Positions 3,001 through 56,508 of a stretch of DNA of 64,000 bases are shown here, piece after piece. The first letter of the stretch is position 1, and each line of letters begins with the position of its first letter. A program made the translations under genes and the position numbers. Source of the DNA: an uncultured Bacteroidaceae bacterium (GTDB lineage: Bacteria > Bacteroidota > Bacteroidia > Bacteroidales > GCA-2748055); assembly GCA_964526475.1 (NCBI GenBank), contig CAZGKF010000009.1, positions 10,248 to 74,247 of the forward strand, given 5' to 3'. The notes under the pieces are model-generated. The model searched no databases. It was not told the DNA's origin and saw only the letters and a list, made by a program, of their open reading frames with translations.

Positions 3001-4526
3001 CCTTTAAGTAGTTTAAGATACAGAGCATTGGGTGCACTTATCCCGGAGGTCGATAATTCGCCGACATTATAGGTCTTTCCGTTGAAAGTATATTCATATG
3101 CAACTGCGAGAATTTCGTCGGAATTTAATGCTGAATTGAGTGAGATGTAACCCAGTTTATCATTAAAACTATATTCTCTTGAAGAAAGTCGACGGGCATT
3201 TTCTATTTTTTCATAATCTCTTACAGGTACAAAGTCGGGCTGCAATGGCTGGAAAATATTGGTAACCTGGTTTATACTTCTGACATCGGAATATATCCCT
3301 GAACTCATTTGCCCGTAAAGATCGTTTAATTCATTTCTGGGATTGTTGCCAGCTTCAGCCGGATTCCGGATGAACAAAGGAGAAAAGGGTTCCGGTTCTC
3401 CGAGATCAGTAAAGGCCAGTATGTTTCTGGATTCTTCAAAATTACTCGTCTTATTGGTTATCCATACTTCAATTCTTGTGATTGTAATTCCTGAGTTGAT
3501 CACCGGAAGATTTACAAGTGCTTTGTTATAGTTTTGCATGAAATATCCGGAAAGAAAAAAATGCCTGTTGGCATCGTAGTTATCAACTGTTATATCATAA
3601 TCATTTAGTTGCGCTCCCCCCTGTACTTCTATCACTGAAGTTTCTCCCTTTTGCTGGGAAAAAACATTTGTCACGGTCAGTTTCCCGAACTGCATTTCAG
3701 TTTTAAGACCGAATAAACTCTGACTCCCTGTTATCAGAGAACCGGAAAGTGGGAGGGTAATATTTCCGGCTTCAATCTTTTTTATTATCTCATCTTCTTT
3801 ACCTGAATATTCCAGTTTTGTCCTGTTCTCAAAATCGAAGGTAGCTTCTGTATTATAATTAACATCAAGTTTCATTTTGTCGCCGATATTTCCGGAAACA
3901 TTCATAAGGATTTTTTCCTCAAAGTTGAATGAAGGTGTTTTACGCAATCTTTCGCTAAGAGTGGGATTGTCGATCCTTGACATGTTAAAGCCGAATATCA
4001 GTTCTGCTGAACCGGTTGGATTGATGTTAATAACATTAGTTCCAAAAACCCGATCGAAGGTTTCTCCTCCGACACTCAACTGAGGGATGAATCCCGGCAG
4101 TGTTTCAATCCTTTCTCCCCTGGATTTCTGCCGCCAGTATTCCATCATGTTCTTTCGGTGTTGATATTTCTGAAACTCACTGAATGTCATTGTCTGCGGG
4201 GGACGGTAATAGTAATCTCCAATTTTTTCTTTAAAATAATACTGTTTTGTAACCGGGTCATATTCAATAATTTGTTTAATATTAGATGGTTGCCGGAGAT
4301 AAAGAGGGGATTCAAGACCTGAACCGGAGTAGGGGAAATTTCCTTTTTCAGAGAAGGGAAATTGAAGATCAGAAGTATCTGGTTGCGAAAAGATGATTAA
4401 ATACTCTGATGATAAATAATTGTCCAATGCTTTCATACTTCCTGCGGTGGCGAGCATCCGGAAGGAGAAGAAAATAAGGTGGAGGGCTAGAACCGCCGTG
4501 AGTTTGTATAAAAGTATTTTTCTCAA
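1..4526 (-). CDS. sprA: Type IX secretion translocon / gliding-motility protein SprA, N-terminal ~1500 codons (3' end of the gene lies beyond window position 1)
   Basis: It is absent from the ORF track because the frame runs off the window. My manual minus-strand translation from TTG 4526 (in-frame ATG at 4457) gives a signal-like LRKILLYKLTAVLALHLIFF. It continues with ..RKTPSFNFEEKILMNVSGNIGDKMKLDVNYNTEATFDFENRTKLEYSGKEDEIIKKIEAGNITLPLSGSLITGSQSLFGLKTEMQFGKLTVTNVFSQQKGE..ITRIEVWITNK, which matches the conserved SprA N-terminal region as I remember it. The same frame is still open at position 1 (..NPKSGTNKNLDDGLSKSGE). Only short plus-strand ORFs occur in 1-4500. Confidence 0.8.
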   Translation of the reverse strand, partial: MRKILLYKLTAVLALHLIFFSFRMLATAGSMKALDNYLSSEYLIIFSQPDTSDLQFPFSEKGNFPYSGSGLESPLYLRQPSNIKQIIEYDPVTKQYYFKEKIGDYYYRPPQTMTFSEFQKYQHRKNMMEYWRQKSRGERIETLPGFIPQLSVGGETFDRVFGTNVININPTGSAELIFGFNMSRIDNPTLSERLRKTPSFNFEEKILMNVSGNIGDKMKLDVNYNTEATFDFENRTKLEYSGKEDEIIKKIEAGNITLPLSGSLITGSQSLFGLKTEMQFGKLTVTNVFSQQKGETSVIEVQGGAQLNDYDITVDNYDANRHFFLSGYFMQNYNKALVNLPVINSGITITRIEVWITNKTSNFEESRNILAFTDLGEPEPFSPLFIRNPAEAGNNPRNELNDLYGQMSSGIYSDVRSINQVTNIFQPLQPDFVPVRDYEKIENARRLSSREYSFNDKLGYISLNSALNSDEILAVAYEYTFNGKTYNVGELSTSGISAPNALYLKLLKGSNFTPSSPTWKLMMKNIYAIGAYQVNPQDFSLEILYQDDKTGNAINYIPEGDLNKKILLKLFNLDNLNSNSDPYPDGQFDFIPGITINPTNGRVIFPILEPFGEDLEKIILQQLGNNQEVINRYVFRELYDSTKTKAQQIAEKNKFKLSGSYQSASSSEIMLNAMNIPPGSVKVTAGGRELVENVDYTVDYTIGRVNIINLGLMESGTPVRISLESNTLFNIQTKTLFGAHLDYRVSDNFNIGGTILNLTERPLTQKVNIGDEPISNTLWGLNTSYRTESQWLTTILDKFPLLETKEVSNISFTGEFAHLIPGHSRAIEKKGNAYIDDFEGSETTIDLKQFSAWSISSTPSDNFPEALLSNDLRYGYNRAKLAWYYIDPLFLRNNALTPSHLKENPDQQSSHFVREIFEKDIFPKKESPSGIPTNISVLNLAFYPKERGPYNYDWQNINPDGTLSQPKERWGGIMREIISNDFEAANVEFIEFWMMDPFVEDNGHSGGDLFFNLGSISEDVLKDGRKSFENGLPSTAEVTLVDTTAWGRVPRVQSLVPAFNYDPESRKYQDVGLDGFSNEDEQSFFSDFLENLRSVLTPEALSNIEEDPSSDNFHYYRGTDYDRQRLGILERYKYYNGLESNSPTAEQSEEPYPTTGSTLPDVEDINRDNTLSESESFYSYRISMRPQDLEVGRNFIVDKVRNEITFINGSKSAVYWYQFRVPIRDYEKTVGDIQDFKSIRFVRMYMTGFEDSVVLRFARLHLIRSEWRKYNFDLAEGGETWTGSEPVTGSFDISAVNIEENAGKEPVNYVLPPGITRVIDPSQPQLRQLNEQSIVLKVRDLEDGDSRTAYKNVALDIRQYKRIEMEAHAEAVTGQILNDYDLVAFIRLGSDYKGNFYEYEVPLKITPPGRYKGDSDTERRVVWPKENRFDIELEIFQQAKQARNNAMHQPGSIVDLNTVFVIYDDNGNKVSISGNPNLSNIRTIMIGVRNPKSGTNKNLDDGLSKSGE

Positions 4527-18591: not shown

Positions 18592-18767
18592 GAGTATAAA
18601 TTTTTGGTTAATAAATAGAAAATGTTTTTACTGCTTAATTTGAAAAAAATGAGGAAAATCAGCGTGGGAAAAAATCTTTTTTAGAATAAAGTGCACCAGC
18701 AATTTGCAGTGCAGTCAATACCTGACTAATATCACCTTTGCTCCATCCAATCATTTAACAGAGCTAA

Positions 18768-18892
18768 GGGCTAATAGTGAACGGGTTCTATTTCACACCA
18801 TAGCCGATGGTAATCGGTAATGCTAAATTAGAGCAATGGGTTAATAGCGAACAGGTTCTGTTTCATATCGTAGTCAATGGTATTCGGTAATC
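18768..18892. repeat. Two degenerate tandem copies (70-nt period, ~55 nt aligned, roughly 80 percent identity by eye)
   Basis: GGGCTAATAGTGAACGGGTTCTATTTCACACCATAGCCGATGGTAATCGGTAATG (18768-18822) versus GGGTTAATAGCGAACAGGTTCTGTTTCATATCGTAGTCAATGGTATTCGGTAATC (18838-18892). Both lie in an ~880-nt ORF-poor interval. Confidence 0.6.
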
Positions 18893-39981: not shown

Positions 39982-41197
39982 TATCTACCCCGACCCAGGC
40001 TTTCTTTGAAGTCCAATCCTGTGCTGCTGCCGCCCAGAATGGATGAGTACCGGGCAAACCTAAGGGAAGCATGCCAACAGTACACAGGTACATGCTGCCA
40101 GTGGACAAGTAAGTCTCGGCCATATCAGGCTGGTGCCCGGCCAGACCAATGTTTAACCATCCGTTTTCATCGAATGTATTTTTGGGTTCAATACAATTTC
40201 GGATAACTTTAGTAAGTGCAGCGCGCACTTGTGCCGGATGAACCTTTTCAGGTAATTTATCGAGCAGGGCCATTTGTGCAAGAGACTGAAATGCACCAAA
40301 CCTGTATGTAACAGACCTTCCGGTAACAGGGAAAGTTCCTTCTGGTGATATCAGGCGTTCCTGGATTTCGGCATAACGCTGCGACCTTTTTAAAATGGTA
40401 TCATAGTGGTCTCCATGTTCAGCCTTATGCTTTTTTAATAAAGCTACAATATCCACCATAAAAGGTTGAATAACATAACTATTGTAATAATCAAAGGCAA
40501 ATTCTGGTCCATCTGAATATACTCCATCTCCAACATACCATTGCAAGAGTTGACGGATGACGTAATCCATACGCATCTTATCGTACTCACCGGTAAACTC
40601 AAGAAGGAAAGCCTCTACCATGCCACTGAAAAGCAGCCAGTTGGAGAACCCAGGCCTGATCAATCTTGATGATTTTATGGCCGTAATAAGCTGGGTTTTC
40701 GTTTTCTCATTAAGGGGATGAAATAATACATCTGGTGCACGCAGAATCCCATGAGCTAAAAATGCTGTGTCTACAAGAGGCTGTCCGTAATTGGTAAAAT
40801 TCATGAAATCGGGTGAATCGGGGTCAACTGCCTGGGCTATTGCAGCCCTGCCTGTATCTGCATATTTTTTACGTAATTGACCCTCAGCATCATCGCTTTC
40901 ATCCAGTGCCAGCCACGGAGCAATACCGGCCATGGTTCTTCCCAGAGCTTCCAGGTAAGTAACATTTTTACGGCTTTTACCATTGGATCGAACCGGCATG
41001 TTTTGTTTCAGTTTACCTTCACTCAGGTTTTTCAATACGGGATCCACAATTTTTACAAGGGTTGATACCCAATACTCACGGTCAGAAACTGCCTGATGCT
41101 CGAGGTTTTGTGTTCGGTTAAACAGTTTCGATGGACCGAACGACATCCCGGCAAGACTTGCTAATGAGACGTTTCGAATGAATTTTTTTCGTTTCAT
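39953..41197 (-). CDS. DUF2264-domain protein with a Tat-like signal peptide
   Basis: The likely start is MKRKKFIRNVSLASLAGMSFG (ORF-track start 41248 is 17 codons upstream). ..WLLFSGMVEAFLL.., ..YYNSYVIQPFMVDI.. are typical of DUF2264 as I recall it. Confidence 0.65.
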   Translation of the reverse strand: MKRKKFIRNVSLASLAGMSFGPSKLFNRTQNLEHQAVSDREYWVSTLVKIVDPVLKNLSEGKLKQNMPVRSNGKSRKNVTYLEALGRTMAGIAPWLALDESDDAEGQLRKKYADTGRAAIAQAVDPDSPDFMNFTNYGQPLVDTAFLAHGILRAPDVLFHPLNEKTKTQLITAIKSSRLIRPGFSNWLLFSGMVEAFLLEFTGEYDKMRMDYVIRQLLQWYVGDGVYSDGPEFAFDYYNSYVIQPFMVDIVALLKKHKAEHGDHYDTILKRSQRYAEIQERLISPEGTFPVTGRSVTYRFGAFQSLAQMALLDKLPEKVHPAQVRAALTKVIRNCIEPKNTFDENGWLNIGLAGHQPDMAETYLSTGSMYLCTVGMLPLGLPGTHPFWAAAAQDWTSKKAWVGVDIGRDWAFRN

Positions 41198-41483
41198 ATA
41201 ATTAGTTTTTGAATGATATAAAGATAATAAGTTAAAATTTACACCCACTGCTTAGGTTTTTCATATTCGAATAAATATTCCGGAAATTAAAACAACCTGC
41301 TTCTATCATTGATAAGTTCATAATCAGTTTTACCGATGCGGACTGTGCTTCTGGCAATCAATGAAATTACGCCTGCCTTCTACCTTCTCAATCCCCACCC
41401 TCACCCCTCCATTTCCGTCATTCACCGATTCATTTTTGCCAGATGTAAATCGGGATCATAGTTTTGTGGCATAAAACCAATAA

Positions 41484-43841
41484 ATGCAGACAAGTAAAAT
41501 GAAATCACTAAAGTTTACACTAATCGCACTGGCCTTAACACTTATATGCCTCCAGAATTTATCTGCCACTGAACCGGATATTTCCGGTAATGCAGTACTC
41601 AGCGGGTATATAAAAGACGCCTCCAACGGTGAAACTCTCATCGGGGCTACCGTTTATATCAGGGAATTACATGCCGGAACAATTACCAATGTATATGGTT
41701 TTTATTCTCTTAGCGTTCCGCCGGGAGTTTATAATGTAAACTTTTCCTATGTGGGTTATGAAAATATCGAACAGCAGATTCAAATTACAGGGAAAATTAC
41801 TTTTAATCCTGATCTCCGGGTCAGTTATATTAATCTGCAGGAAGTTGAAGTAAGCCCGACTAAAACCAACAGTAATGTTTTTGATAACCAAATGAGTTCA
41901 ATCCGAATCAATACGGAAGATATTAAACGTATGCCTGCATTTATGGGGGAAGCAGATGTGCTTAAATCCATACAGTTATTACCGGGTGTTCAGAGTTCGG
42001 GAGAAGGTTTCTCGGGCTTTAACGTCAGGGGAGGATCGGCCGATCAAAACCTGATTCTTCTGGATGAAGCCACTGTTTATAATCCATCTCACCTTCTTGG
42101 TTTTTTCTCAGTGTTTAACTCCGATGCCATCAAGGATGTGAAAATCTATAAAGGCGATATCCCGGCACAATACGGAGGCAGGCTATCCTCGCTTCTGGAT
42201 ATACGTATGAAGGATGAAAATTCCAAAAAGCCACAGGTCACCGGAGGAATTGGAAGCATTGCCAGCCGGCTGACAGTTGAAGCTCCGCTTATTAAGGATA
42301 AGTCTTCAATCCTGCTTTCCGGAAGAAGAACCTATGCGGACCTGTTTCTTCCACTCACAAAGGATACCCTGCTGCACAATAATAAACTTTTTTTCTACGA
42401 TTTGAATATGAAAGCAAGTTACTCCATAAATGATAAAAACCGGATTTTTTTCTCGGGTTATTTTGGGCGCGATGTATTTTCTTTCCGCGATATGTTCAAC
42501 ATGCAGTGGGGAAATGCCACCGAAACCTTCCGTTGGAACCATATCTTTAATGATAGGCTTTTTTCCAATATTTCACTGATCTATTCCGATTATAATTATT
42601 CCATGGACATTAACCAGGGAATGAATACCTTTAAATGGGAATCGCTGATCCGCGATATCGGCGGCAAGGCTGATTTAACCTGGTATGCTGATCCTAATAA
42701 TACCTTTCGTTTTGGCATGCATGCTACCCATCACTATATTGAACCCGGTAATATAGAGAACAAAGTAAGTGGACAACAGATAGAAGTAGCTCTTAACAAG
42801 TCGATGGATTATGCCCTATATCTTTCAAATGATCAAAAAGTCAGTGAGAAATTCCTTATGAACTATGGTATGCGGTTTTCCGTCCTTCAAAATATTGGGA
42901 CAGCCACCGTATTCAGATATAACGATTCCTTTGAAGTAATCGATACATCGTATTACACCGGAAGTAAACCCTATCATAGCAATGCAGGATTTGAACCAAG
43001 ATTTAGTATGACCTATATCTTTAATTCATCACTTTCCGTAAAAGCCAGCTATTCGAAAACCCGGCAATACCTCCAGCTGGCATCCAATTCATCCGCAGGA
43101 CTTCCTACCGATGTCTGGTTTCCTTCTTCACCAAATATTAAACCACAGGTTTCTGAACAGGTAGCAACGGGAATTTTTAAAAACCTGTTTAATGATAAAC
43201 TGGAATTATCAGTTGAAGGATATTACAAGAAAATGTACAATCAAATCGACTTCCGGGAAAACGCACAACTTTACTTCAATGATAAGCTGGAAGCTGAAAT
43301 CAGAACTGGAAAAGCCTTTTCCTATGGAATGGAATTTATGATTCGGAAGCAGTCGGGTAAGCTAACCGGTTGGATTGGGTACACTTTATCAACTGCCCGG
43401 AGGAAGATCGAAGAAATCAACAACGGGGACTGGTACCGTTCCAGTTACGATAAGCCCCATAACCTGGTTGTGGTTGCAAACTATGATATTTCACCCCGCG
43501 TGAACCTTGGTGCAAACTGGATTTTCACCAGCGGGGCTCCCATTACCCTGCCTACCGGGAAATGGGAATATGGAAACATGATCCTCCCATCTTACTCAGA
43601 GCGTAATGGCTACAGACTACCGGATTATCATCGGCTGGATATATCCGCTACCATTCAACTCAACAGTAAACCCAAAAAATTCCTTTCAGAAATGAATATT
43701 TCCTGTTACAATGCTTATAACCGGAAAAATCCTTTTACCATATATTTCGAACCAGACCAAACAGATAATAATACCATGAAGGCTTATAAATTAAGTATGT
43801 TCGGAATTATTCCGGCCGTTACATGGAATTTTAGATTCTGA
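41484..43841 (+). CDS. TonB-dependent receptor (CarboxypepD_reg + plug + beta-barrel)
   Basis: 785 aa; signal peptide (probable start MKSLKFTLIALAL at 41499), ..LSGYIKDASNGETLIGATVYI..GFYSL..GVYNVNFSYVGYE.., a plug region, and a C-terminal aromatic residue (..TWNFRF). Confidence 0.9.
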   Translation: MQTSKMKSLKFTLIALALTLICLQNLSATEPDISGNAVLSGYIKDASNGETLIGATVYIRELHAGTITNVYGFYSLSVPPGVYNVNFSYVGYENIEQQIQITGKITFNPDLRVSYINLQEVEVSPTKTNSNVFDNQMSSIRINTEDIKRMPAFMGEADVLKSIQLLPGVQSSGEGFSGFNVRGGSADQNLILLDEATVYNPSHLLGFFSVFNSDAIKDVKIYKGDIPAQYGGRLSSLLDIRMKDENSKKPQVTGGIGSIASRLTVEAPLIKDKSSILLSGRRTYADLFLPLTKDTLLHNNKLFFYDLNMKASYSINDKNRIFFSGYFGRDVFSFRDMFNMQWGNATETFRWNHIFNDRLFSNISLIYSDYNYSMDINQGMNTFKWESLIRDIGGKADLTWYADPNNTFRFGMHATHHYIEPGNIENKVSGQQIEVALNKSMDYALYLSNDQKVSEKFLMNYGMRFSVLQNIGTATVFRYNDSFEVIDTSYYTGSKPYHSNAGFEPRFSMTYIFNSSLSVKASYSKTRQYLQLASNSSAGLPTDVWFPSSPNIKPQVSEQVATGIFKNLFNDKLELSVEGYYKKMYNQIDFRENAQLYFNDKLEAEIRTGKAFSYGMEFMIRKQSGKLTGWIGYTLSTARRKIEEINNGDWYRSSYDKPHNLVVVANYDISPRVNLGANWIFTSGAPITLPTGKWEYGNMILPSYSERNGYRLPDYHRLDISATIQLNSKPKKFLSEMNISCYNAYNRKNPFTIYFEPDQTDNNTMKAYKLSMFGIIPAVTWNFRF

Positions 43842-43861
43842 AGGTAGAGACCAGGCATGCC

Positions 43862-44575
43862 TTGTCTCTCACCTCCACCAGTCACTTCTTTAAAACTGTA
43901 TATATCCTGTTTATTGGTCTTTTGTGTCTGTACCTTCAATATTCCATCAAGCGTTTGATTATTAAGCAGACTGAGGTAAAAACCCAGGTCGTTGAACTTC
44001 AGAAAGAAAACCTGCAGGCACAATTCCAGATGCTAAAACAACAGGTTAATCCGCATTTCCTGTTTAACAGTCTGAATGTACTTACTTCCCTCATAAAAAC
44101 CGAACCTGAGCTTGCTGAGAAATTTACTGAACAATTATCTAAGGTATACAGGTATGTGCTTGAAAATAAGGATAAGGACCTTATCCCATTGAATACTGAG
44201 ATGAACTTTCTCAGGGCTTATATCTTTTTACTCGATATCAGGTTTATGGGAAAAATGAAAATAGATATAGAATTTGATGAGCAAAGAGAAGACAAACTTT
44301 TACCGCCCCTCTCGTTACAGATCATTATTGAAAATGCGATCAAGCATAATACATTTTCCAGAAAATCCCCCCTGCATGTGAGACTTTTTATTGATGAAAA
44401 TGATTATCTCAACGTAGTAAACAACCTGCAAAGCAGGGAAACTCAATTCGCATCTACCGGAACAGGATTGGAGAATATTATTAACCGTTATGCCCTGATC
44501 TCAGATCGCGTTCCGGTTTTTAAAAAGACGGATGATCAATATTTTGCTATGATACCTCTTTTAAATAAACACTAA
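43862..44575 (+). CDS. Short LytS-type histidine kinase (one TM + His_kinase + HATPase_c)
   Basis: 237 aa (TTG start); ..LKQQVNPHFLFNSLNVLTSLI.., ..LQIIIENAIKHN.., ..GTGLENI... Confidence 0.8.
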   Translation: MSLTSTSHFFKTVYILFIGLLCLYLQYSIKRLIIKQTEVKTQVVELQKENLQAQFQMLKQQVNPHFLFNSLNVLTSLIKTEPELAEKFTEQLSKVYRYVLENKDKDLIPLNTEMNFLRAYIFLLDIRFMGKMKIDIEFDEQREDKLLPPLSLQIIIENAIKHNTFSRKSPLHVRLFIDENDYLNVVNNLQSRETQFASTGTGLENIINRYALISDRVPVFKKTDDQYFAMIPLLNKH

Positions 44576-44675
44576 AATATATATGTAAACCTTTTTACCC
44601 ATCGTGTCCATCAATATACTGTCTTTATTGCGAAGAGAAACAAGGTGGGACTAAAGAGAGATAAATATCACATCC

Positions 44676-45443
44676 ATGAAAGTAATAATAATTGAAGACG
44701 AAATACTGTCAGCGCAGAGATTAAAAAAGATGATATCTGATTACAGTCCTGATATTGAGGTGATTGCTGAATTAGAATCTATTGAAGAATCTATCAAATG
44801 GTTCAATCAGAATCCTCATCCTGATCTTATCTTTCTTGATATTCATCTTGAAGATGATTTAAGCTTTGCCATTTTTGAGAAGGTAAATATTTCGAGTCCT
44901 ATAATTTTCACAACTGCTTTTGATGAATATGCCATTAAAGCGTTTAAGCTGAAAAGTATTGATTATTTGCTGAAACCGGTGGCTCAGGAAGAATTGAATG
45001 CTGCTCTTAAGAAATACAGGGAAATGACAAAAGGCCAGGGTATTTCTACAGAACTTAATGCCCTTTACGAGATGATAGTTCAAAAAATGCCTAAATACCG
45101 TGAACGGTTCTCTGTGGCTTACGGACAAAAAATTAAAACCTTCAGTATAGAGGAAATTGCATATTTTATTAGTAACGAAGGAAGCACCAGTGCATGTTTA
45201 TACGATGGCAAATCTTATCCGGTTGATGAAAGTATAGAAAAGCTAAAGAATGAACTGGATCCTGTTGATTTTTTTCGTATAAACAGGCAATTGTTGGTAA
45301 AGCTTAATGCCATTGCAAATGTGCATGTGTATCCAAAGAGCCGTTTAAAACTGGAATTAAAACCTGATCCGGGATTCGAAGTATATGTGAGTATTGATAA
45401 AGTTGTGCCTTTTAAGGAATGGTATGGGGGTAAAGTCAGATAG
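44676..45443 (+). CDS. LytTR-family response regulator
   Basis: 255 aa; receiver MKVIIIEDE..DLIFLDIHL..KP; LytTR domain ..FFRINRQLLV... Confidence 0.9.
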   Translation: MKVIIIEDEILSAQRLKKMISDYSPDIEVIAELESIEESIKWFNQNPHPDLIFLDIHLEDDLSFAIFEKVNISSPIIFTTAFDEYAIKAFKLKSIDYLLKPVAQEELNAALKKYREMTKGQGISTELNALYEMIVQKMPKYRERFSVAYGQKIKTFSIEEIAYFISNEGSTSACLYDGKSYPVDESIEKLKNELDPVDFFRINRQLLVKLNAIANVHVYPKSRLKLELKPDPGFEVYVSIDKVVPFKEWYGGKVR

Positions 45444-45544
45444 ACAAAATAATTCATAGTTAAGCAATTTTTTAATAGAGCGAGTTAATTGCCGGAGTTT
45501 CAAACTGATTGTCAAATATATAAACCGGATGATTGCAGCAATAA

Positions 45545-46042
45545 TCAAAGCCTGGGATTAATATTTGTTTTGTCAGCAGCCAGATATCCCCCCCTGACGG
45601 TGGCCCCTATTACGATTCCTGCACTTATCAGCACCAGGTTTTTAAGAATATATTGCCCTTCAAGGGTGGGAACCCAGGGCACCACATTAAAAACTTCGTC
45701 CGGAAATATAAATACCGGAGTCAGGGTGCCCAGCATCTGAAGAAGAAGTAAAAGAATAATTTCACGCAGAAATAATCCACTCAGCAGGCCAATCCCAATT
45801 ACAACCTCCCACACTGCAAGTATAATAACGCCTGACTTCCCGCTAACGAATCCAAAAGTCATAATCTCTATTGTTTTGGCAGCCAGTTCCTGAGCAGGGC
45901 TTACTCCTGGGAAAAATTTCAGTAGCCCGAACCAGAAAAAAATGATACCAACACTTACCCTAAGTAAAAGTATACCATTCCTAGCCATCCATGAGGTAAC
46001 CATTTTGTCGATACGGTTAAATCGGTTTCCTTTTAAATACAT
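45545..46042 (-). CDS. DUF417 (YkgB/RclC-like) or DoxX-like small membrane protein
   Basis: 165 aa; ..LLRVSVGIIFFWFGLLKFFPGVSPA.. and ..GQYILKNLVLISAGIVIGA.. resemble E. coli YkgB as I remember it. Confidence 0.5.
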   Translation of the reverse strand: MYLKGNRFNRIDKMVTSWMARNGILLLRVSVGIIFFWFGLLKFFPGVSPAQELAAKTIEIMTFGFVSGKSGVIILAVWEVVIGIGLLSGLFLREIILLLLLQMLGTLTPVFIFPDEVFNVVPWVPTLEGQYILKNLVLISAGIVIGATVRGGYLAADKTNINPRL

Positions 46043-46166
46043 CGGTTTATCTTTTGTTATTCCTGTAACAAACGAATGGCCAAAAATGTTAAATATATCG
46101 CAGAAATATCATAAAAAAAATTGGGGACTGCTCCGGTCTGATGAAACATCGTAGGTGGGGCGGTAA

Positions 46167-46258
46167 AGACGCAATGCATTGTCTCCCTGCTATTGTAAAT
46201 AAATCCTCAGCGATTAAATTTATTATTCCTTCAATAATTGTATTTTTACACTAGCAGC
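46167..46258 (+). repeat. Left copy of the ~95-nt composite element (half palindrome GACGCAATGCATTG + long imperfect hairpin)
   Basis: AAGACGCAATGCATTGTCTCCCTGCTATTGTAAAT..TTTTTACACTAGCAGC. It aligns with the right copy with a few substitutions. The stem CCCTGCTATTGTAAA / TTTACACTAGCAGC has 2 mismatches. Confidence 0.8.
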
Positions 46259-46405
46259 ACCACTTCGCCTGAAAACCCGAAAAAGGAGGATAGTTAGTGA
46301 TCATTTTATGCATTTATACTGGTTTCAGATAGAAGATATGAAATAGGAATTAGCACCACAAGAGTAGTTAATTCCAGAAAACAGAAAAAAATTGCTACAT
46401 AACCA

Positions 46406-47434
46406 ATGTCTGATCGGTTTAATAAAATATACCGCATACCTTCCGTCCGATTGCAAAATTGGGATTACAGCAGCAATGCGGCATATTTTATTACCATTTG
46501 TACCAAAGACAGGAAACATTTTTTTGGAGAAATAGCCGATGGGGTTATGATATTGTCCGATATTGGGATAATTGCGGAACAGGAATGGTTAAAAACATTT
46601 GAAATGCGGCCGGACATGAATTTACAAATGGATAAATTTGTGGTTATGCCGAATCATTTTCATGGTATAATCATTATAGGTGAAAATGAATATAATAAAC
46701 AGGTTACGGAACGAGGGTTGCAACGGGATACGGAACGAAATACGGAATGGGAAACGGAACGGGAAACGGAATGGGAAATGGAACGGGAAATGGAACGGGA
46801 AACGGAACGGGAAATGGAAAGGGAAACGGAACGGGAAATGGAACGGGAAACGGAATGGGAAACGGAACGGGAAACGGAACGGGAAACGGAACGGGAAACG
46901 GAACGGGAAATGGAATGGGAAATGGAACGGGAAACGGAACGGGAAACGGAATGGGAAATGGAATGGGAAACGGAATGGGAAATGGAATGGGAAATGGAAT
47001 GGGAAATGGAATGTAGAGACGCAATGCATTGCGTCTCTCCCACCGGTCCCACCGGTCCCACCGGTTCCACCGGTTCCACCGGTTCCACCGGTCCCACCGG
47101 TTCCACCGGTTCCACCGGTCCCACCGGACCCACCGGTTCCACCGGTCCCGACAACCCTGCCAAATCCAACCCCTCCGCCAACACAAAACAACCAGGCACG
47201 GTCGTTAAACCCAAAAACCAATTCGGACCACAAACAAAAAATTTGGCATCCATTATCCGTGGGTTTAAAATTGGTGTAACCACACGTGCGCGATTAATTC
47301 GTGATGATTTCGCCTGGCAATCCCGTTTTCACGAACATATTATCCGAAATGAGGAATCTTTTCAAAATATTTCAAAATACATTATAAACAATCCCGCCAA
47401 TTGGAAACAAGATGGATTACACAACAAACCGTAG
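46406..47434 (+). CDS. IS200-like / REP-associated tyrosine transposase (Y1 HUH family) carrying ~150 codons of in-frame repeat-derived insert
   Basis: N-terminal block ..[35 protein letters not shown] (H-U-H). C-terminal block [59 protein letters not shown]. Codons ~101-248 come from the tandem repeats and the palindrome. Confidence 0.8.
46706..47013 (+). repeat. 12-nt microsatellite AYGGAAYGGGAA: 22.7 contiguous copies (46742-47013) preceded by ~3 degenerate copies
   Basis: Counted unit by unit from the sequence. The only variation is C/T at unit positions 2 and 8, plus one A. Confidence 0.95.
47015..47038. repeat. Perfect 24-nt palindrome AGAGACGCAATG/CATTGCGTCTCT (REP-like hairpin) inside the transposase ORF
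   Basis: Self-complementary over all 24 nt. The same GACGCAATGCATTG core starts both flanking elements (46168 and 47436 regions). Confidence 0.95.
47041..47148 (+). repeat. 9-nt microsatellite CACCGGTYC, 12 contiguous copies
   Basis: Counted from the sequence. Each unit contains the palindrome ACCGGT. Variation is C/T at position 8 and one T-to-A at position 7. It is translated as (P/S)TG repeats. Confidence 0.95.
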
Positions 47435-47528
47435 AGACGCAATGCATTGCTTCCCTGCTATTGTAAAAAAAATCCTCAGCGATTAAATTTATTATTCCCC
47501 TAATAATTGTATTTTTACAATAGCAGGG
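47431..47528 (+). repeat. Right copy of the composite element, with a perfect 17-bp stem
   Basis: GTAGAGACGCAATGCATTGCTTCCCTGCTATTGTAAAAA(47453-47469)..42-nt loop..TTTTTACAATAGCAGGG(47512-47528). It contains the transposase stop codon TAG 47432-47434. Confidence 0.85.
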
Positions 47529-47637
47529 TAGTATGCAGCGCTTTGGCGCGCCAGCGAAGATTACCTGCAAACCTTAGACCTTATAGATAACAATTCTGCA
47601 CGATACTTAAGTTTGCAGGTAATGAACAAATTAAAAA

Positions 47638-48366
47638 ATGATGACAAAGCCAATTCTGATTCTTAGAAACATACCCAGGGAAAATCCCGGACTCATAGAA
47701 ATTTTATTGAAAGAATATTCTGTTAAATATCAAATAGTTGATTTTGACAATTCAACAGAAATTGTTATCGAAAATTACGGTGCATTAATTGTTCTGGGGG
47801 GACCTTATAGTGCAAATGATTTGTCTCCAAAAATGCAAAATGAATTATTATTAATCAGAAATGCTTTACAGGCACATATCCCCTTTCTCGGAGTTTGCTT
47901 AGGATTACAGACCTTAGTCAAGGCAATGGGAGGCAATGTGGTAAAGTGCCAAATCAATGAAATAGGATTCAGGGATCCTGCAAATAACTTCTTCAAAGTG
48001 ATATTAACTTCCGAAGGCAGAAGAGATAAACTCTTTAATAACTTGTCTGATAATCTTACTGTTTTTCAACTACACGGGGAGACAGTACAACTTACTCCAC
48101 AAATGATTCTGTTAGCCACCGGAGATTTCTGTAAGAATCAAATTATAAAAATTGGTAAAAATGCATATGGTATTCAATCTCATTTTGAATTAACCAATGA
48201 CCTCCTGGAATCATGGATTATCGAGGATACTGACCTCCAAAAACTTCAAGCTGAACAACTGCGATCTGATTTTGAAAAAATTAGAACAGAGTATCAAAAC
48301 ACCGGACGGCAAATATTTTATAACTTCCTTATTATTGCAGGATTAATAAATTCTACGAACGCCTGA
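47638..48366 (+). CDS. Class I (type 1) glutamine amidotransferase-like protein
   Basis: 242 aa; nucleophile elbow ..PFLGVCLGLQ.. and ..YGIQSHFE.. (His/Glu of the triad). Confidence 0.85.
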   Translation: MMTKPILILRNIPRENPGLIEILLKEYSVKYQIVDFDNSTEIVIENYGALIVLGGPYSANDLSPKMQNELLLIRNALQAHIPFLGVCLGLQTLVKAMGGNVVKCQINEIGFRDPANNFFKVILTSEGRRDKLFNNLSDNLTVFQLHGETVQLTPQMILLATGDFCKNQIIKIGKNAYGIQSHFELTNDLLESWIIEDTDLQKLQAEQLRSDFEKIRTEYQNTGRQIFYNFLIIAGLINSTNA

Positions 48367-48638
48367 CACAGACGATATAATTGATAAGCACGACATGGTT
48401 TTTGTTTTCCTGCTGGCAGGCAGGAAACCAGGATTATTCGTCGCTTCGCTCCTCATGATCCTGGTAAGGGGGGTAATTCAAAGAAAAAGCCTTCATTCGC
48501 ATCGCTATCGCTCGCTCATTACGGGCTTTATCTTCCATCCGCTTATGAAAGCGAGTGTAAAGTGAAATCAGGATTTAATTATTAATCTGAAACTTATTAA
48601 GTGCGAGTCAGCGCTTTCAACGCGTCTGTAAGAATAAA

Positions 48639-48662
48639 GCCCTCCCGCTAATGCGGGAAGGC
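48639..48662. terminator. Hairpin GCCCTCCCGC-TAAT-GCGGGAAGGC followed by TTTTTCTTTT (copy 1 of the duplicated terminator)
   Basis: 10-bp GC-rich stem (one G.U/A.C position depending on strand). A T-run follows on the plus strand and TTTATTCTT follows on the minus strand, so it could terminate transcripts from either direction. Confidence 0.55.
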
Positions 48663-48879
48663 TTTTTCTTTTGTCGGGGTGGCAGATTAGCTTTGCTGAT
48701 CCTGTATTGGGGGTGAACTAAAAGAAAAAGCCTTCATTCGCATCGCTATCGCTCGCTCATTACGGGCTTTATCTTCCATCCGCTTATGAAAGCGAGTGTA
48801 AAGTGAAATCAGGATTTAATTATTAATCTGAAACTTATTAAGTGCGAGTCAGCGCTTTCAACGCGTCTGTAAGAATAAA

Positions 48880-48903
48880 GCCCTCCCGCTAATGCGGGAA
48901 GGC
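48880..48903. terminator. Same hairpin (copy 2), located 12 nt downstream of the tRNA-Pro 3' end on the minus strand
   Basis: Identical sequence to 48639-48662. Its position fits a tRNA terminator (minus strand) and a terminator for the plus-strand GATase transcript. Confidence 0.6.
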
Positions 48904-48914
48904 TTTTTCTTTTG

Positions 48915-48989
48915 TCGGGGTGGCAGGATTCGAACCTGCGACCCCCTGCTCCCAAAGCAGGTGCGCTAACCGGACTGCGCTACACCCCG
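48915..48989 (-). tRNA. tRNA-Pro (anticodon UGG)
   Basis: The reverse complement folds as CGGGGTG-TA-GCGC-AGTCCGGTTA-GCGC-A-CCTGC-TTTGGGA-GCAGG-GGGTC-GCAGG-TTCGAAT-CCTGC-CACCCCG-A, 75 nt. All four stems are Watson-Crick. CCA is not encoded. Confidence 0.95.
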
Positions 48990-49007
48990 AAAATATGACT
49001 ATTAAAA

Positions 49008-49085
49008 GAACCTGCGACTCTCCCGACGCCCTAGTCGGGATGCACTATCGAAACCCGACTCATCGTCGGGACTACACCCCGAAAA
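49008..49085 (-). pseudogene. tRNA-Pro-derived fragment (T-arm half and 5' acceptor/D-arm start) interrupted by two CCCGAC..GTCGGG hairpins
   Basis: GAACCTGCGAC (49008-49018) and ACTACACCCCGAAAA (49071-85) match the genuine tRNA (48932-42, 48979-93). Between them lie CCCGAC-gcccta-GTCGGG (49022-39) and CCCGAC-tcatc-GTCGGG (49054-70). A further GGACTACACCCCTGAAAA copy is at 49151-49168. Confidence 0.5.
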
Positions 49086-49477
49086 ATTTTTATCAATACA
49101 TTTAATATGCTGTGATCAGCAAACTCAGCATGTTTGTCAGGCTGTAAATTGGACTACACCCCTGAAAAACAAGTTTGCAAATATAGGAAAGACTATTGTA
49201 ATATCCCAATGATAATTTTTTTTCCGCAGATTTTGCAGGAAAGTTGGCAGCAGGTTTTATCGTAATGTATAAATATTCCCCGCCGTTGGGAGATCGCGTT
49301 GAAAAAATGTAAGGAATGATTGTGCGAACCTGAAGCTTTTTGGCCGGAGTACGGAGGGAAGATTTGTTAGATTCGCTAACTCCCCCCTCCTTTTTTCAAG
49401 GTAGGGGGGGAGTCCATTTCAACCAACAAAGCTTATATCAGGCGGACATCCAAGGATTTGAACCTTAAGAAAATGTC

Positions 49478-50350
49478 CTATTTCACATAATCAGCATTCG
49501 TCAGAAATTCAAAGCTTTTCCGAACACTTTCAATGGGTTCGAAGTTATACTTCTCCACTTCAACAATATAATATTTCATGCCTGATAATTCTGCATTTTC
49601 AAAGATAGGCCTGAAGTCTATCTTTCCGCTGGCCCCGACTTCCATTTCATCTTTAATATGCCATAATTCAAAACGTCCGGGATATTTTTCAAAATATTCA
49701 ACAGGATCCTGACCACCCTTAATAATCCAATAGATATCGAGCTGAAACATTACCTTTTCCGGATCGGTATTTTCAACGAGAATATCATATATTACCTGCC
49801 CTTCTACCTCGGCAAATTCTTTGGCATGGTTATGAAAACCAAAACGAATGCCTGCTGCATTACATTTTTCACCAACAGCATTAAAATATTCAGCTGTCTT
49901 TTTTACAGATACTATACTATCAAAGCTGTTTTTACCAAGGGAAGGCTGAACAATATATTGCACACCGGCAGCTTTATGGGCGGCAATACAGGTGTCCCAC
50001 CATGCCATTGTGGTATCCCATTCAGCCTCATCCTGAGGCAGGGGTCGGCCGGTATGGGAGGCAAGGAATTTCATACCATGACTTTCTACAAGATCCTTGA
50101 AATCAACCGGATCCATCCCATAGAAATTGCCATCACTGTATCCGGCAGCTTCTACAAAATCGTAACCTATCTCTCCAACTCTGGCAACAGTACTTTCCAC
50201 ATCTTCCTTCATGTCGGCCCGAAGGGAATATAACTGAAGTCCGATATATTTTTCTGCTTTTTCCGGTTTGCAGGAGCTTATCCCACCAGAAAGGAGAATA
50301 GAGAAGATAACTAAAGGTACTAATTTGGAATAAGAAAATAAAAATTTCAT
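49478..50350 (-). CDS. Sugar phosphate isomerase/epimerase (xylose isomerase-like TIM barrel), lipoprotein/secreted
   Basis: 290 aa; signal peptide with ..GGISSC; ..IGLQLYSLR.., ..FGFHNHAKEF.., ..LWHIKD.. are typical of the AP_endonuc_2 family. Confidence 0.85.
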   Translation of the reverse strand: MKFLFSYSKLVPLVIFSILLSGGISSCKPEKAEKYIGLQLYSLRADMKEDVESTVARVGEIGYDFVEAAGYSDGNFYGMDPVDFKDLVESHGMKFLASHTGRPLPQDEAEWDTTMAWWDTCIAAHKAAGVQYIVQPSLGKNSFDSIVSVKKTAEYFNAVGEKCNAAGIRFGFHNHAKEFAEVEGQVIYDILVENTDPEKVMFQLDIYWIIKGGQDPVEYFEKYPGRFELWHIKDEMEVGASGKIDFRPIFENAELSGMKYYIVEVEKYNFEPIESVRKSFEFLTNADYVK

Positions 50351-55479: not shown

Positions 55480-56508
55480 ATGAGCAAGGAAAGTAACGAA
55501 AAGGGTAATGCAAATACCGAGAAATTAAAAGTCTTGCAGCTAACGCTGGATAAAATTGAAAAGGGTTATGGCAAGGGCGCAATCATGAAAATGGGCGATA
55601 ATGCCATTGTGGATGTGCCCGTTATCCCATCAGGCTCAGTCGGGGTGGATATTGCCCTTGGAGTTGGAGGATACCCGAAAGGCAGAGTAATTGAAATATA
55701 TGGTCCTGAATCTTCCGGTAAAACCACCCTGGCAATTCATGCTATAGCCGAGGCCCAGAAAGCCGGAGGAATAGCAGCATTTATTGATGCGGAACATGCT
55801 TTCGACCGTTTTTATGCTTCAAAATTAGGCGTTGATATTGAAAATCTTCTTATCTCTCAGCCCGATAATGGTGAGCAGGCGCTTGAAATCACCGATCACC
55901 TTATTCGTTCAGGGGCAATTGATATTATTGTAATTGACTCTGTGGCTGCGCTTACACCGAAAGCGGAAATTGAAGGCGAGATGGGTGATTCAAAAATGGG
56001 ACTACAGGCCAGGTTAATGTCGCAGGCACTGCGTAAACTAACGGCCAACATTAACAGGACCAACACTTGTTGCGTATTTATCAACCAGCTAAGAGAAAAA
56101 ATAGGGGTGATGTTTGGAAATCCTGAGACAACTACCGGAGGTAATGCCTTGAAATTTTATGCTTCAGTCAGGATTGATATCAGGAAAATCGGACAGATCA
56201 AAGAAGGAGAGGAAGTATTCGGGAACAGGACGCGTGTGAAAATTGTAAAAAACAAACTTGCTCCTCCTTTCAAAAAAGCCGAATTCGATATAATGTATGG
56301 CACAGGTATTTCGCGAACCGGCGAAATCATTGATATGGGAGTGGAATTTAACCTTATCAAAAAAAGCGGTTCATGGTTTAGTTATGGTGACACCAAACTA
56401 GGACAGGGAAGGGACAGCGTAAAGCAACTGCTTTTGGATAATCCTGAACTTTTCGAGGAACTTGAAAATAAACTAAAGGAAATTTTAAAAGGGAAAAAAC
56501 CCGTGTGA
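55480..56508 (+). CDS. recA: Recombinase RecA
   Basis: 342 aa; ..[64 protein letters not shown]... Confidence 0.97.

Follow-up and report, generated by a model that had tools for sequence, protein, structure and literature searches.

We analysed a stretch of 64,000 nt, here called the window, from the genome of an uncultured Bacteroidaceae bacterium (GenBank assembly GCA_964526475.1, contig CAZGKF010000009.1, positions 10,248 to 74,247). At positions 46163-47528 it carries a gene for a tyrosine (Y1) transposase that is flanked by two direct copies of a composite hairpin element. This locus is very probably a REPtron, that is, a chromosomal gene for a REP (repetitive extragenic palindrome)-associated tyrosine transposase (RAYT), in this case of TnpA-REP subclass 2.4 (RAYT group 4), together with copies of its cognate REP. 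As far as can be judged from the sequence, the gene is probably present in a single copy in the source genome. A third REP is located inside the gene, in frame and between two tandem arrays; it was missing from the description given in an earlier note on this DNA, and it is the defining peculiarity of subclass 2.4. Loci of this kind have been published before, and what the window adds is an extreme example together with quantitative support. The features of the locus are as follows.

46163..46257, plus strand: left composite element, consisting of a degenerate REP, GTAA-AGACGCAATGCATTGTCTCC-CTGC (46163-46190), and a long, partly degraded hairpin (46185-46257)
46258..46405, plus strand: spacer of 148 nt between the left element and the ATG, presumably holding the promoter and the 5' untranslated region, to judge from its position
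46406..47434, plus strand: RAYT (TnpA-REP) gene of 342 aa with an ATG start and no internal stop; HUH motif N83-H84-F85-H86, W304-Q305 and Tyr motif Y325-IINNP
46722..47011, plus strand: left in-frame array, unit YGGAAYGGGAAA, 12 nt repeated 24.2 times, the phase of which runs into the G of the GTAG foot
47013..47038, plus strand: intragenic REP, with a GTAG foot at 47013 and a perfect 24-nt palindrome, AGAGACGCAATGCATTGCGTCTCT, at 47015-47038; read as C-R-D-A-M-H-C-V-S
47038..47149, plus strand: right in-frame array, unit CGGTYCCAC, 9 nt repeated 12.4 times, the first and imperfect unit of which begins inside the 3' end of the REP
47431..47528, plus strand: right composite element, consisting of a REP, GTAG-AGACGCAATGCATTGCTTCC-CTGC (47431-47458), with two core mismatches, and a hairpin at 47453-47528

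Family and anatomy of the transposase locus

The earlier note had recognised two conserved blocks of REP-associated or IS200-like transposases in open reading frame 46406-47434. In agreement with this, all 342 codons are open and both blocks are present, including the sequence YIINNPANW. The NCBIfam model REP_Tyr_transpos (NF047646) matched the full protein with E = 2.9e-16 (59.7 bits) and the protein from which the insert had been removed with E = 1.4e-18 (67.1 bits), and no other transposase model was obtained in either NCBIfam scan at E <= 0.1. A 26-member family profile matched the structure of Escherichia coli TnpA-REP (PDB 4ER8) over the HUH and Tyr blocks (E = 4.7e-6). Residues N83-H84-F85-H86, W304-Q305 and Y325..N329-P330 are invariant in the 26-sequence alignment, and the block containing WQ and the Tyr motif (Y325-I-I-N-N-P330) aligns to WQPRF...YIYINP of 4ER8. 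In the AlphaFold model the core (residues ~25-95 and 280-335) has pLDDT values above 90, and the insert is placed outside this confident core. Comparison with the PDB by Foldseek gave 29 top matches that were all Y1 transposases (ISDra2, IS608, IS200, Sulfolobus and 4ER8). The protein clearly belongs to the Y1 superfamily. Homologues number more than 4,300; most of the named ones come from Bacteroidota, and the annotation in some sources is "REP element-mobilizing transposase RayT". An exact look-up of the 342-aa protein in a gene-position index returned no other record.

Quentin et al. 2018 (BMC Genomics 19:475, PMC6006769) equate TnpA-Y1 subclass 2.4 with RAYT group 4 of Bertels et al. 2017, assign to it the motifs NH[IFV]H / WQ / YIxNNP, and describe it as frequent in Cyanobacteria and Bacteroidetes, with a mean of 1.5 copies per genome. 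According to the same text, in-frame REPs within tnpA-REP, generally between HuH and Y, are unique to this subclass, and its variable-length loop holds short DNA repeats. Its Table S1 gives GTAGAGACGCAATGCATTGCGTCTCTAC as the "double-foot" REP of the subclass 2.4 gene of Chlorobium chlorochromatii. The window locus shares all of these traits. Its motifs NHFH, WQ and YIINNP fit the subclass signature, and it comes from the same phylum. The gene is flanked by long or double-foot REPs of the GT[AG]G-footed type, both of them decayed, a further REP lies in frame within the variable insertion between beta3 (HUH) and alphaC, and short DNA repeats fill the loop. Since these features, including the REP of Table S1 itself, are those published for the subclass, the locus is a member of a kind already described. 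It differs from the described members in the size of its loop, about fourfold the median of the family, with arrays of 24 and 12 copies abutting the REP (one relative, L156, is larger still), and in that its flanking REPs are fused to a long hairpin as 95-nt direct repeats, for which the accessible part of Quentin et al. 2018 holds no description.

The cognate REP is a 28-nt double-foot hairpin, GTAG-AGACGCAATGCATTGCGTCT-CTAC. Its palindrome occurs three times in the window, always at the RAYT gene: the internal copy is perfect and the two flanking copies are decayed. What had been described as a half-palindrome at the start of each flanking element is a full-length, mutated 28-nt REP. The upstream one, located 239 nt before the ATG, has a GTAA foot and three core mismatches, the downstream one a GTAG foot and two, and the 3' foot of both reads CTGC. 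In both composites the 3' arm of the REP and the 5' arm of the long hairpin (CCCTGCTATTGTAAA...) share nucleotides, and the REP fold and the long-hairpin fold are therefore mutually exclusive. The TAG within the GTAG foot of the right palindrome (47431-47434) provides the stop codon of the gene (47432-47434), which agrees with the placement of the stop inside the right copy in the earlier note. GTAG REPs are a frequent source of TAG stop codons, and some REP families are located inside longer palindromes (Di Nocera et al. 2013, PMC3733652).

The two direct repeats flanking the gene, at 46163-46257 and 47431-47526/8, are ~95 nt each and ~90-92% identical. They had been correctly identified as direct copies, except that the left one starts at 46163, with GTAA, and not at 46167. 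In the alignment their similarity ends sharply at both borders, which disposes of the alternative that they are part of a larger segmental duplication. Folding as single-stranded DNA bore out the perfect 17-bp stem (47453-47469 / 47512-47528) and 42-nt loop reported for the right copy (-20 kcal/mol, z = -5.7). The left stem had been said to contain two mismatches; mismatches are indeed present, and its 3' arm is in addition truncated (-9.9 kcal/mol, z = -2.0 in DNA folding). A 27-nt piece of the hairpin loop, a 15-nt stem arm and the palindrome are all confined to this locus within the 64 kb, and the observed counts were reached in 0 of 100 shuffles. The 95-nt composite may be a locus-specific partial duplication starting at the REP, in which case the 95 nt after the stop-codon REP would repeat the 95 nt after the upstream REP. 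The opinion that the ends cannot be assigned to a named element holds for the adjoining long hairpin and not for the palindrome, which is a known REP.

The REP inside the gene and its arrays

The intragenic palindrome is read in frame at about residues 203-211, between the HUH and Tyr motifs, and the junction of the left array with the REP reads TGGAATG-TAG, the hyphen marking the border. The translation of the left array, (E-R/W-E-T/M)n at residues 109-202, is modelled by AlphaFold with high confidence as a single 94-residue alpha-helix. That of the right array, (P/S-T-G)n at residues 205-277, has a collagen-like Gly-X-Y pattern and is predicted to be disordered; it accounts for the only match obtained in a Pfam scan of the full protein, to Collagen and just under threshold. 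The helix and the collagen-like stretch are probably incidental products of the DNA repeats. The distance from the HUH motif to the C-terminal block is 186 aa in the window, compared with a median of 46 and a maximum of 107 in those 114 of the 120 closest homologues in which both anchors were located.

Contigs of an independent short-read assembly (Logan SRR7048221) match the window with 100% identity over 40676-46778 and 47098-48509, which independently confirms the flanks on both sides. These contigs break inside both arrays, and the arrays thus behave as real repeats. Variation between units of both arrays (46722-47149) consists almost exclusively of C<->T changes. In the left array the two positions that vary are both cytosines of a CpG (CGG/TGG and ACG/ATG), and variants with T are concentrated in the REP-proximal units. 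Possible reasons for this pattern are extension of the array from the side of the REP, or deamination of cytosines that are methylated or single-stranded.

Two sets of relatives were compared with the window gene: the 120 best homologues, and 73 metagenomic genes that had been picked solely by N-terminal peptide patterns. The REP is encoded in the central loop in 110 of the 120 homologues. Two reading frames are used, giving RDAMHCVS (101) or VETQCIAS (10). Among the metagenomic genes, picked by protein alone, a hairpin whose stem measures at least 9 bp is present in the loop of 58 of 73. Its outer stem, GTAGAGAC...GTCTCTAC, is conserved; the inner stem and the apex vary among genes, with both arms always changing together. 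The use of two frames of the same REP indicates that the conserved object is DNA or RNA and not a peptide. A peptide function of RDAMHCVS was considered as the main constraint and rejected, since 10 homologues translate this DNA in a different frame and since the two arms of the hairpin co-vary. Other RAYT loci repeat the arrangement in which one REP lies upstream, one inside the gene and one at the stop codon. The architecture of the window gene is found on a larger scale in L156, whose 585-nt loop consists of an array of 43 units of 9 nt, a REP variant and an array of 28 units of 6 nt.

Duplications on a larger scale were observed in two further relatives. Metagenomic locus L157 (2700-4250) carries about three tandem copies of the N-terminal half of its RAYT gene, along with a REP variant, a 6-nt array and a second REP, and the REPs lie at the junctions of the repeated halves. 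A similar internal duplication, ending at the REP, is present in protein P0001.

Tandem arrays are frequent in the loops of the relatives. Among the well-scoring arrays of the 73 metagenomic genes, the period of those inside the loop is divisible by 3 in 28 of 28 cases, against 21 of 57 in the remainder of these loci, and the loop contains 2.76 arrays per kb against 0.20 per kb elsewhere, a ~14-fold difference. In loci selected for the presence of a REP, arrays abut 18 of 151 REPs (12%) and 2.3% of random positions; a reading of the individual rows showed that they adjoin roughly half of the in-gene REPs and fewer than one tenth of the solo copies. Arrays at solo REPs have periods such as 5, 7, 8 and 17. 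The triplet periodicity inside genes therefore reflects selection for an open frame and not the mechanism by which arrays arise. A unit that continues into the GTAG foot is also seen elsewhere, as in L070 (CGGTAA...CGGTAG), L034 (likewise) and L156 (CCGTTAAT...CCGTAGAG). We infer that the base of the hairpin is the point against which units become duplicated, either because replication stalls there and slips or because the feet are nicked and rejoined; the data fit both routes without separating them.

REP dispersal and interpretation of the locus

Dispersal of the REP was studied by searching for its exact 20-nt core in one genome per species, which gave at least 120 stretches; copy numbers are lower bounds, and all statements in this paragraph refer to the matches listed. 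The core is present in Bacteroidota, Planctomycetota (including the anammox Kuenenia and Brocadiaceae) and Desulfobacterota, and further in Anaerolineales (Chloroflexota), Leptospirales (Spirochaetota), Balneolia, Fibrobacterota and one alphaproteobacterial metagenome-assembled genome (Rhodobiaceae). Several genomes contribute two to five contigs with the exact core. A RAYT gene lies in the same block in ~14 of the at least 120 core-bearing stretches, and the absence of a nearby RAYT gene from ~105 of 120 shows that the REP is dispersed. Both feet (GTAG...CTAC) are present at 81 of the 125 exact cores and a single foot at 26, and 9 cores lie exactly at the centre of a longer palindrome, whereas 0.9 would be expected. 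These findings fit a resident low-copy gene for a "domesticated" enzyme together with a dispersed REP, and do not fit a multicopy insertion sequence.

How such a locus would work can be proposed by analogy with the TnpA-REP enzymes of E. coli, Stenotrophomonas and Marinomonas. For groups 2 and 3, in vitro work including the CST assay (Corneloup et al. 2021) established that TnpA-REP binds the folded single-stranded REP with GTAG as recognition or guide element, and that it cleaves at CT or CA, 5' or 3' of the hairpin, through a 5'-phosphotyrosine link, after which strand transfer is possible. The window enzyme would likewise bind its REP as a folded hairpin of single-stranded DNA, with the GTAG foot as recognition or guide sequence, cut at a nearby CT or CA while forming a 5'-phosphotyrosine link, and be able to rejoin strands. 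Such activity on the 28-nt double-foot REP, which we infer from these analogues, would spread or rearrange REPs instead of moving the gene itself. Any in-frame sequence would be tolerated in the surface loop that separates the HUH motif from the C-terminal part with its Tyr, and the two arrays would most likely be by-products of the internal hairpin, produced by stalling or slippage of replication at its base or by nicking of its feet by the enzyme, with selection filtering them so as to keep the frame open. By default we regard the in-gene REP as a tolerated passenger in a permissive loop.

The REPtrons of E. coli (4ER8, group 2) and of Stenotrophomonas and Marinomonas (group 3) share with the window locus an HUH/Y1 enzyme with the WQxR..EH.IRN...YI..NP block, a GTAG at the 5' foot of the hairpin and a REP-flanked gene, as well as, presumably, the chemistry (binding of single-stranded hairpins, CT/CA cleavage and strand transfer). 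Differences are that the E. coli REP has a bulged stem, whereas the window palindrome is perfect with feet on both sides, and that group 2 and 3 genes are without an intragenic REP and their enzymes without a long loop between HUH and Tyr. In-frame palindromic repeats tolerated in surface loops are also known as Rickettsia palindromic elements and as intragenic REPs in other genes (Di Nocera et al. 2013); GTAG REPs supply TAG stops as well. In contrast to those cases, the host gene here encodes the REP's own transposase, and the insertion is near-universal and co-varying instead of sporadic.

Several observations weigh against the assignment as a subclass 2.4 REPtron. The NF047646 scores of 59.7-67.1 bits stay below the equivalog cut-off of 80 bits. 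Pfam Y1_Tnp, proposed earlier as a check on the protein, did not match the full protein, because the insert splits the domain, and reached 16.1 bits against a cut-off of 23 with the insert removed; this outcome is formally borderline, and Y1 membership is clear from the other tests. The remaining ~62 kb of the window contain no solo REP, so that dispersal is known from other genomes only. The copy numbers of 24.2 and 12.4 rest on the window assembly and have no independent confirmation in the Logan contigs. The long-hairpin module has no further copy in the 64-kb window, a 24-nt piece of its loop gave 0 matches in JGI metagenome contigs, and the accessible RAYT/REP literature offers no counterpart to such a module adjoining a REP. 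Finally, no biochemical study of subclass 2.4 is apparent in the literature, the in vitro work covering groups 2 and 3.

A first alternative concerns the role of the in-gene REP, which might be functional, either as a cis autoregulatory site, where the enzyme or the DNA or mRNA hairpin limits the expression or integrity of its own gene, or as a heritable master copy that holds enzyme and substrate together and seeds the dispersed REPs. We consider this possible though unlikely. A hairpin is found in the same loop in 79-92% of relatives, its two arms change together so that the palindrome is kept amid hypervariable neighbouring sequence, and the frame skew of 101 to 10 suggests inheritance over repeated random insertion; in the window, moreover, it is the internal copy that is perfect while both flanking copies are decayed. 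However, the hairpin is lacking or lost in 10 of 120 close and 15 of 73 distant relatives in which the gene is still intact, and cis-biased re-insertion of the current REP of the genome into a permissive loop would also yield matching perfect palindromes. A more elaborate proposal seems to us similarly doubtful: the in-gene REP would be a selected, co-evolving self-target or master copy that accompanies the enzyme, processing of its feet by the enzyme in cis or by replication stalled at the hairpin would continually spawn the in-frame arrays, and the loop would be a hypervariable read-out or regulator of enzyme activity.

It is improbable that the gene is a decaying pseudogene whose centre has been overrun by a REP and microsatellites and whose protein is inactive. 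The HUH-to-C-terminal distance, far beyond the range of the homologues, and the decay of the flanking REPs would suit this explanation. On the other hand, ~430 nt of repeats and REP are exactly in frame without a stop, every invariant residue of the family is intact, and the insert is modelled outside the confidently folded core. In addition, the 28 of 28 in-loop arrays of the relatives with a period divisible by 3 indicate selection for an open frame.

The earlier note had left the choice between an insertion sequence and a domesticated RAYT with REP-like elements. The second part stands, on the evidence of NF047646, 4ER8, the motifs and the solo REPs elsewhere, whereas an autonomous IS200/IS605-type insertion sequence, with the 95-nt elements as its left and right ends and 46163-47528 mobile as single-stranded DNA, is very improbable. 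A Y1 gene with similar, equally oriented hairpins at its two ends does correspond to the geometry of IS608 and ISDra2, the transposases of which are among the top Foldseek matches, and IS200/IS605 elements share the Y1 fold and subterminal hairpins that are recognised as single-stranded DNA. They differ in having the motifs DH[VI]H / Y[IV]ENQ (subclass 1.1) where the window protein has NHFH / WQ / YIINNP, in being multicopy and near-identical, in having ends that are not long direct repeats, and in lacking dispersed solo hairpins and GTAG foot recognition. Also against an insertion sequence, REP_Tyr_transpos was the sole transposase model at E <= 0.1 and the Y1_Tnp gathering score (23) was not reached; no second copy of the 1.36-kb unit or of the RAYT gene was found within 64 kb; most stretches with the palindrome (~105 of at least 120) have no transposase gene nearby; and decayed flanking REPs with a perfect internal one are the opposite of what functional ends would lead one to expect. 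The same conclusion is drawn from relative P0039 (Saprospiraceae; L122-L125, 7473-13272), which has an identical gene context in four independent samples.

The RAYT gene of P0039 is located between hsdR-like and hsdM/S-like genes of a type I restriction-modification cluster, and its start overlaps the end of the upstream gene. In L126 the RAYT gene of a close relative lies between 71-nt direct repeats (2897-2967 and 3710-3780) that are 87% identical; these resemble a duplicated 5' end of the neighbouring coding sequence and not REPs.

Read as a REPtron, the locus is an ordinary one that can be annotated as a subclass 2.4 RAYT REPtron and not as an insertion sequence. It is a striking and clean example of a little-studied fact: in this subclass the coding sequence itself contains the substrate hairpin, which is a hot spot where repeats expand in frame and segments become duplicated. 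The counts given above (58 of 73 hairpins, the co-variation of arms, 28 of 28 in-frame periods, the ~14-fold array density and the occurrence of the REP in several phyla) make it possible to test why a domesticated transposase retains its target within the gene that encodes it, and whether REP hairpins cause repeats to expand locally.

Neighbouring features

The locus lies in a chromosomal context, with a SusC-like receptor encoded at 41484-43841 and RecA at 55480-56508. The latter reading frame, which also has 342 aa, was considered as a second copy of the transposase gene and rejected on account of its identity as RecA. This RecA is a singleton when clustered at 90% identity, with no close relative in the collection searched; the origins of the transposase homologues and the SusC-like receptor suggest an uncultured member of Bacteroidota. 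A separate 18-nt inverted repeat (89% complementary, 28-nt spacer) is present at 47560-47623, between the right composite and a glutamine amidotransferase gene at 47638. An Rfam scan of 45000-49500 gave tRNA-Pro alone above threshold; the hairpins produced sub-threshold chance matches to microRNA models.

The region 48456-48926 contains a tandem duplication of 241 nt (2.0 copies, 97% identical), each unit of which has a terminator-like hairpin (AAGCCCTCCCGCTAATGCGGGAAGGCTTTTT). The first unit ends in a partial 3' end of tRNA-Pro(TGG) at ~48672-48690, and the tRNA-Pro gene itself is located at 48914-48989 on the minus strand. The duplication could be a scar of integration or excision at tRNA-Pro, or a simple duplication; the Logan SRR7048221 contig also breaks here. 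Another tandem repeat, of 70 nt (1.9 copies, 80% identical), is present at 18760-18891.

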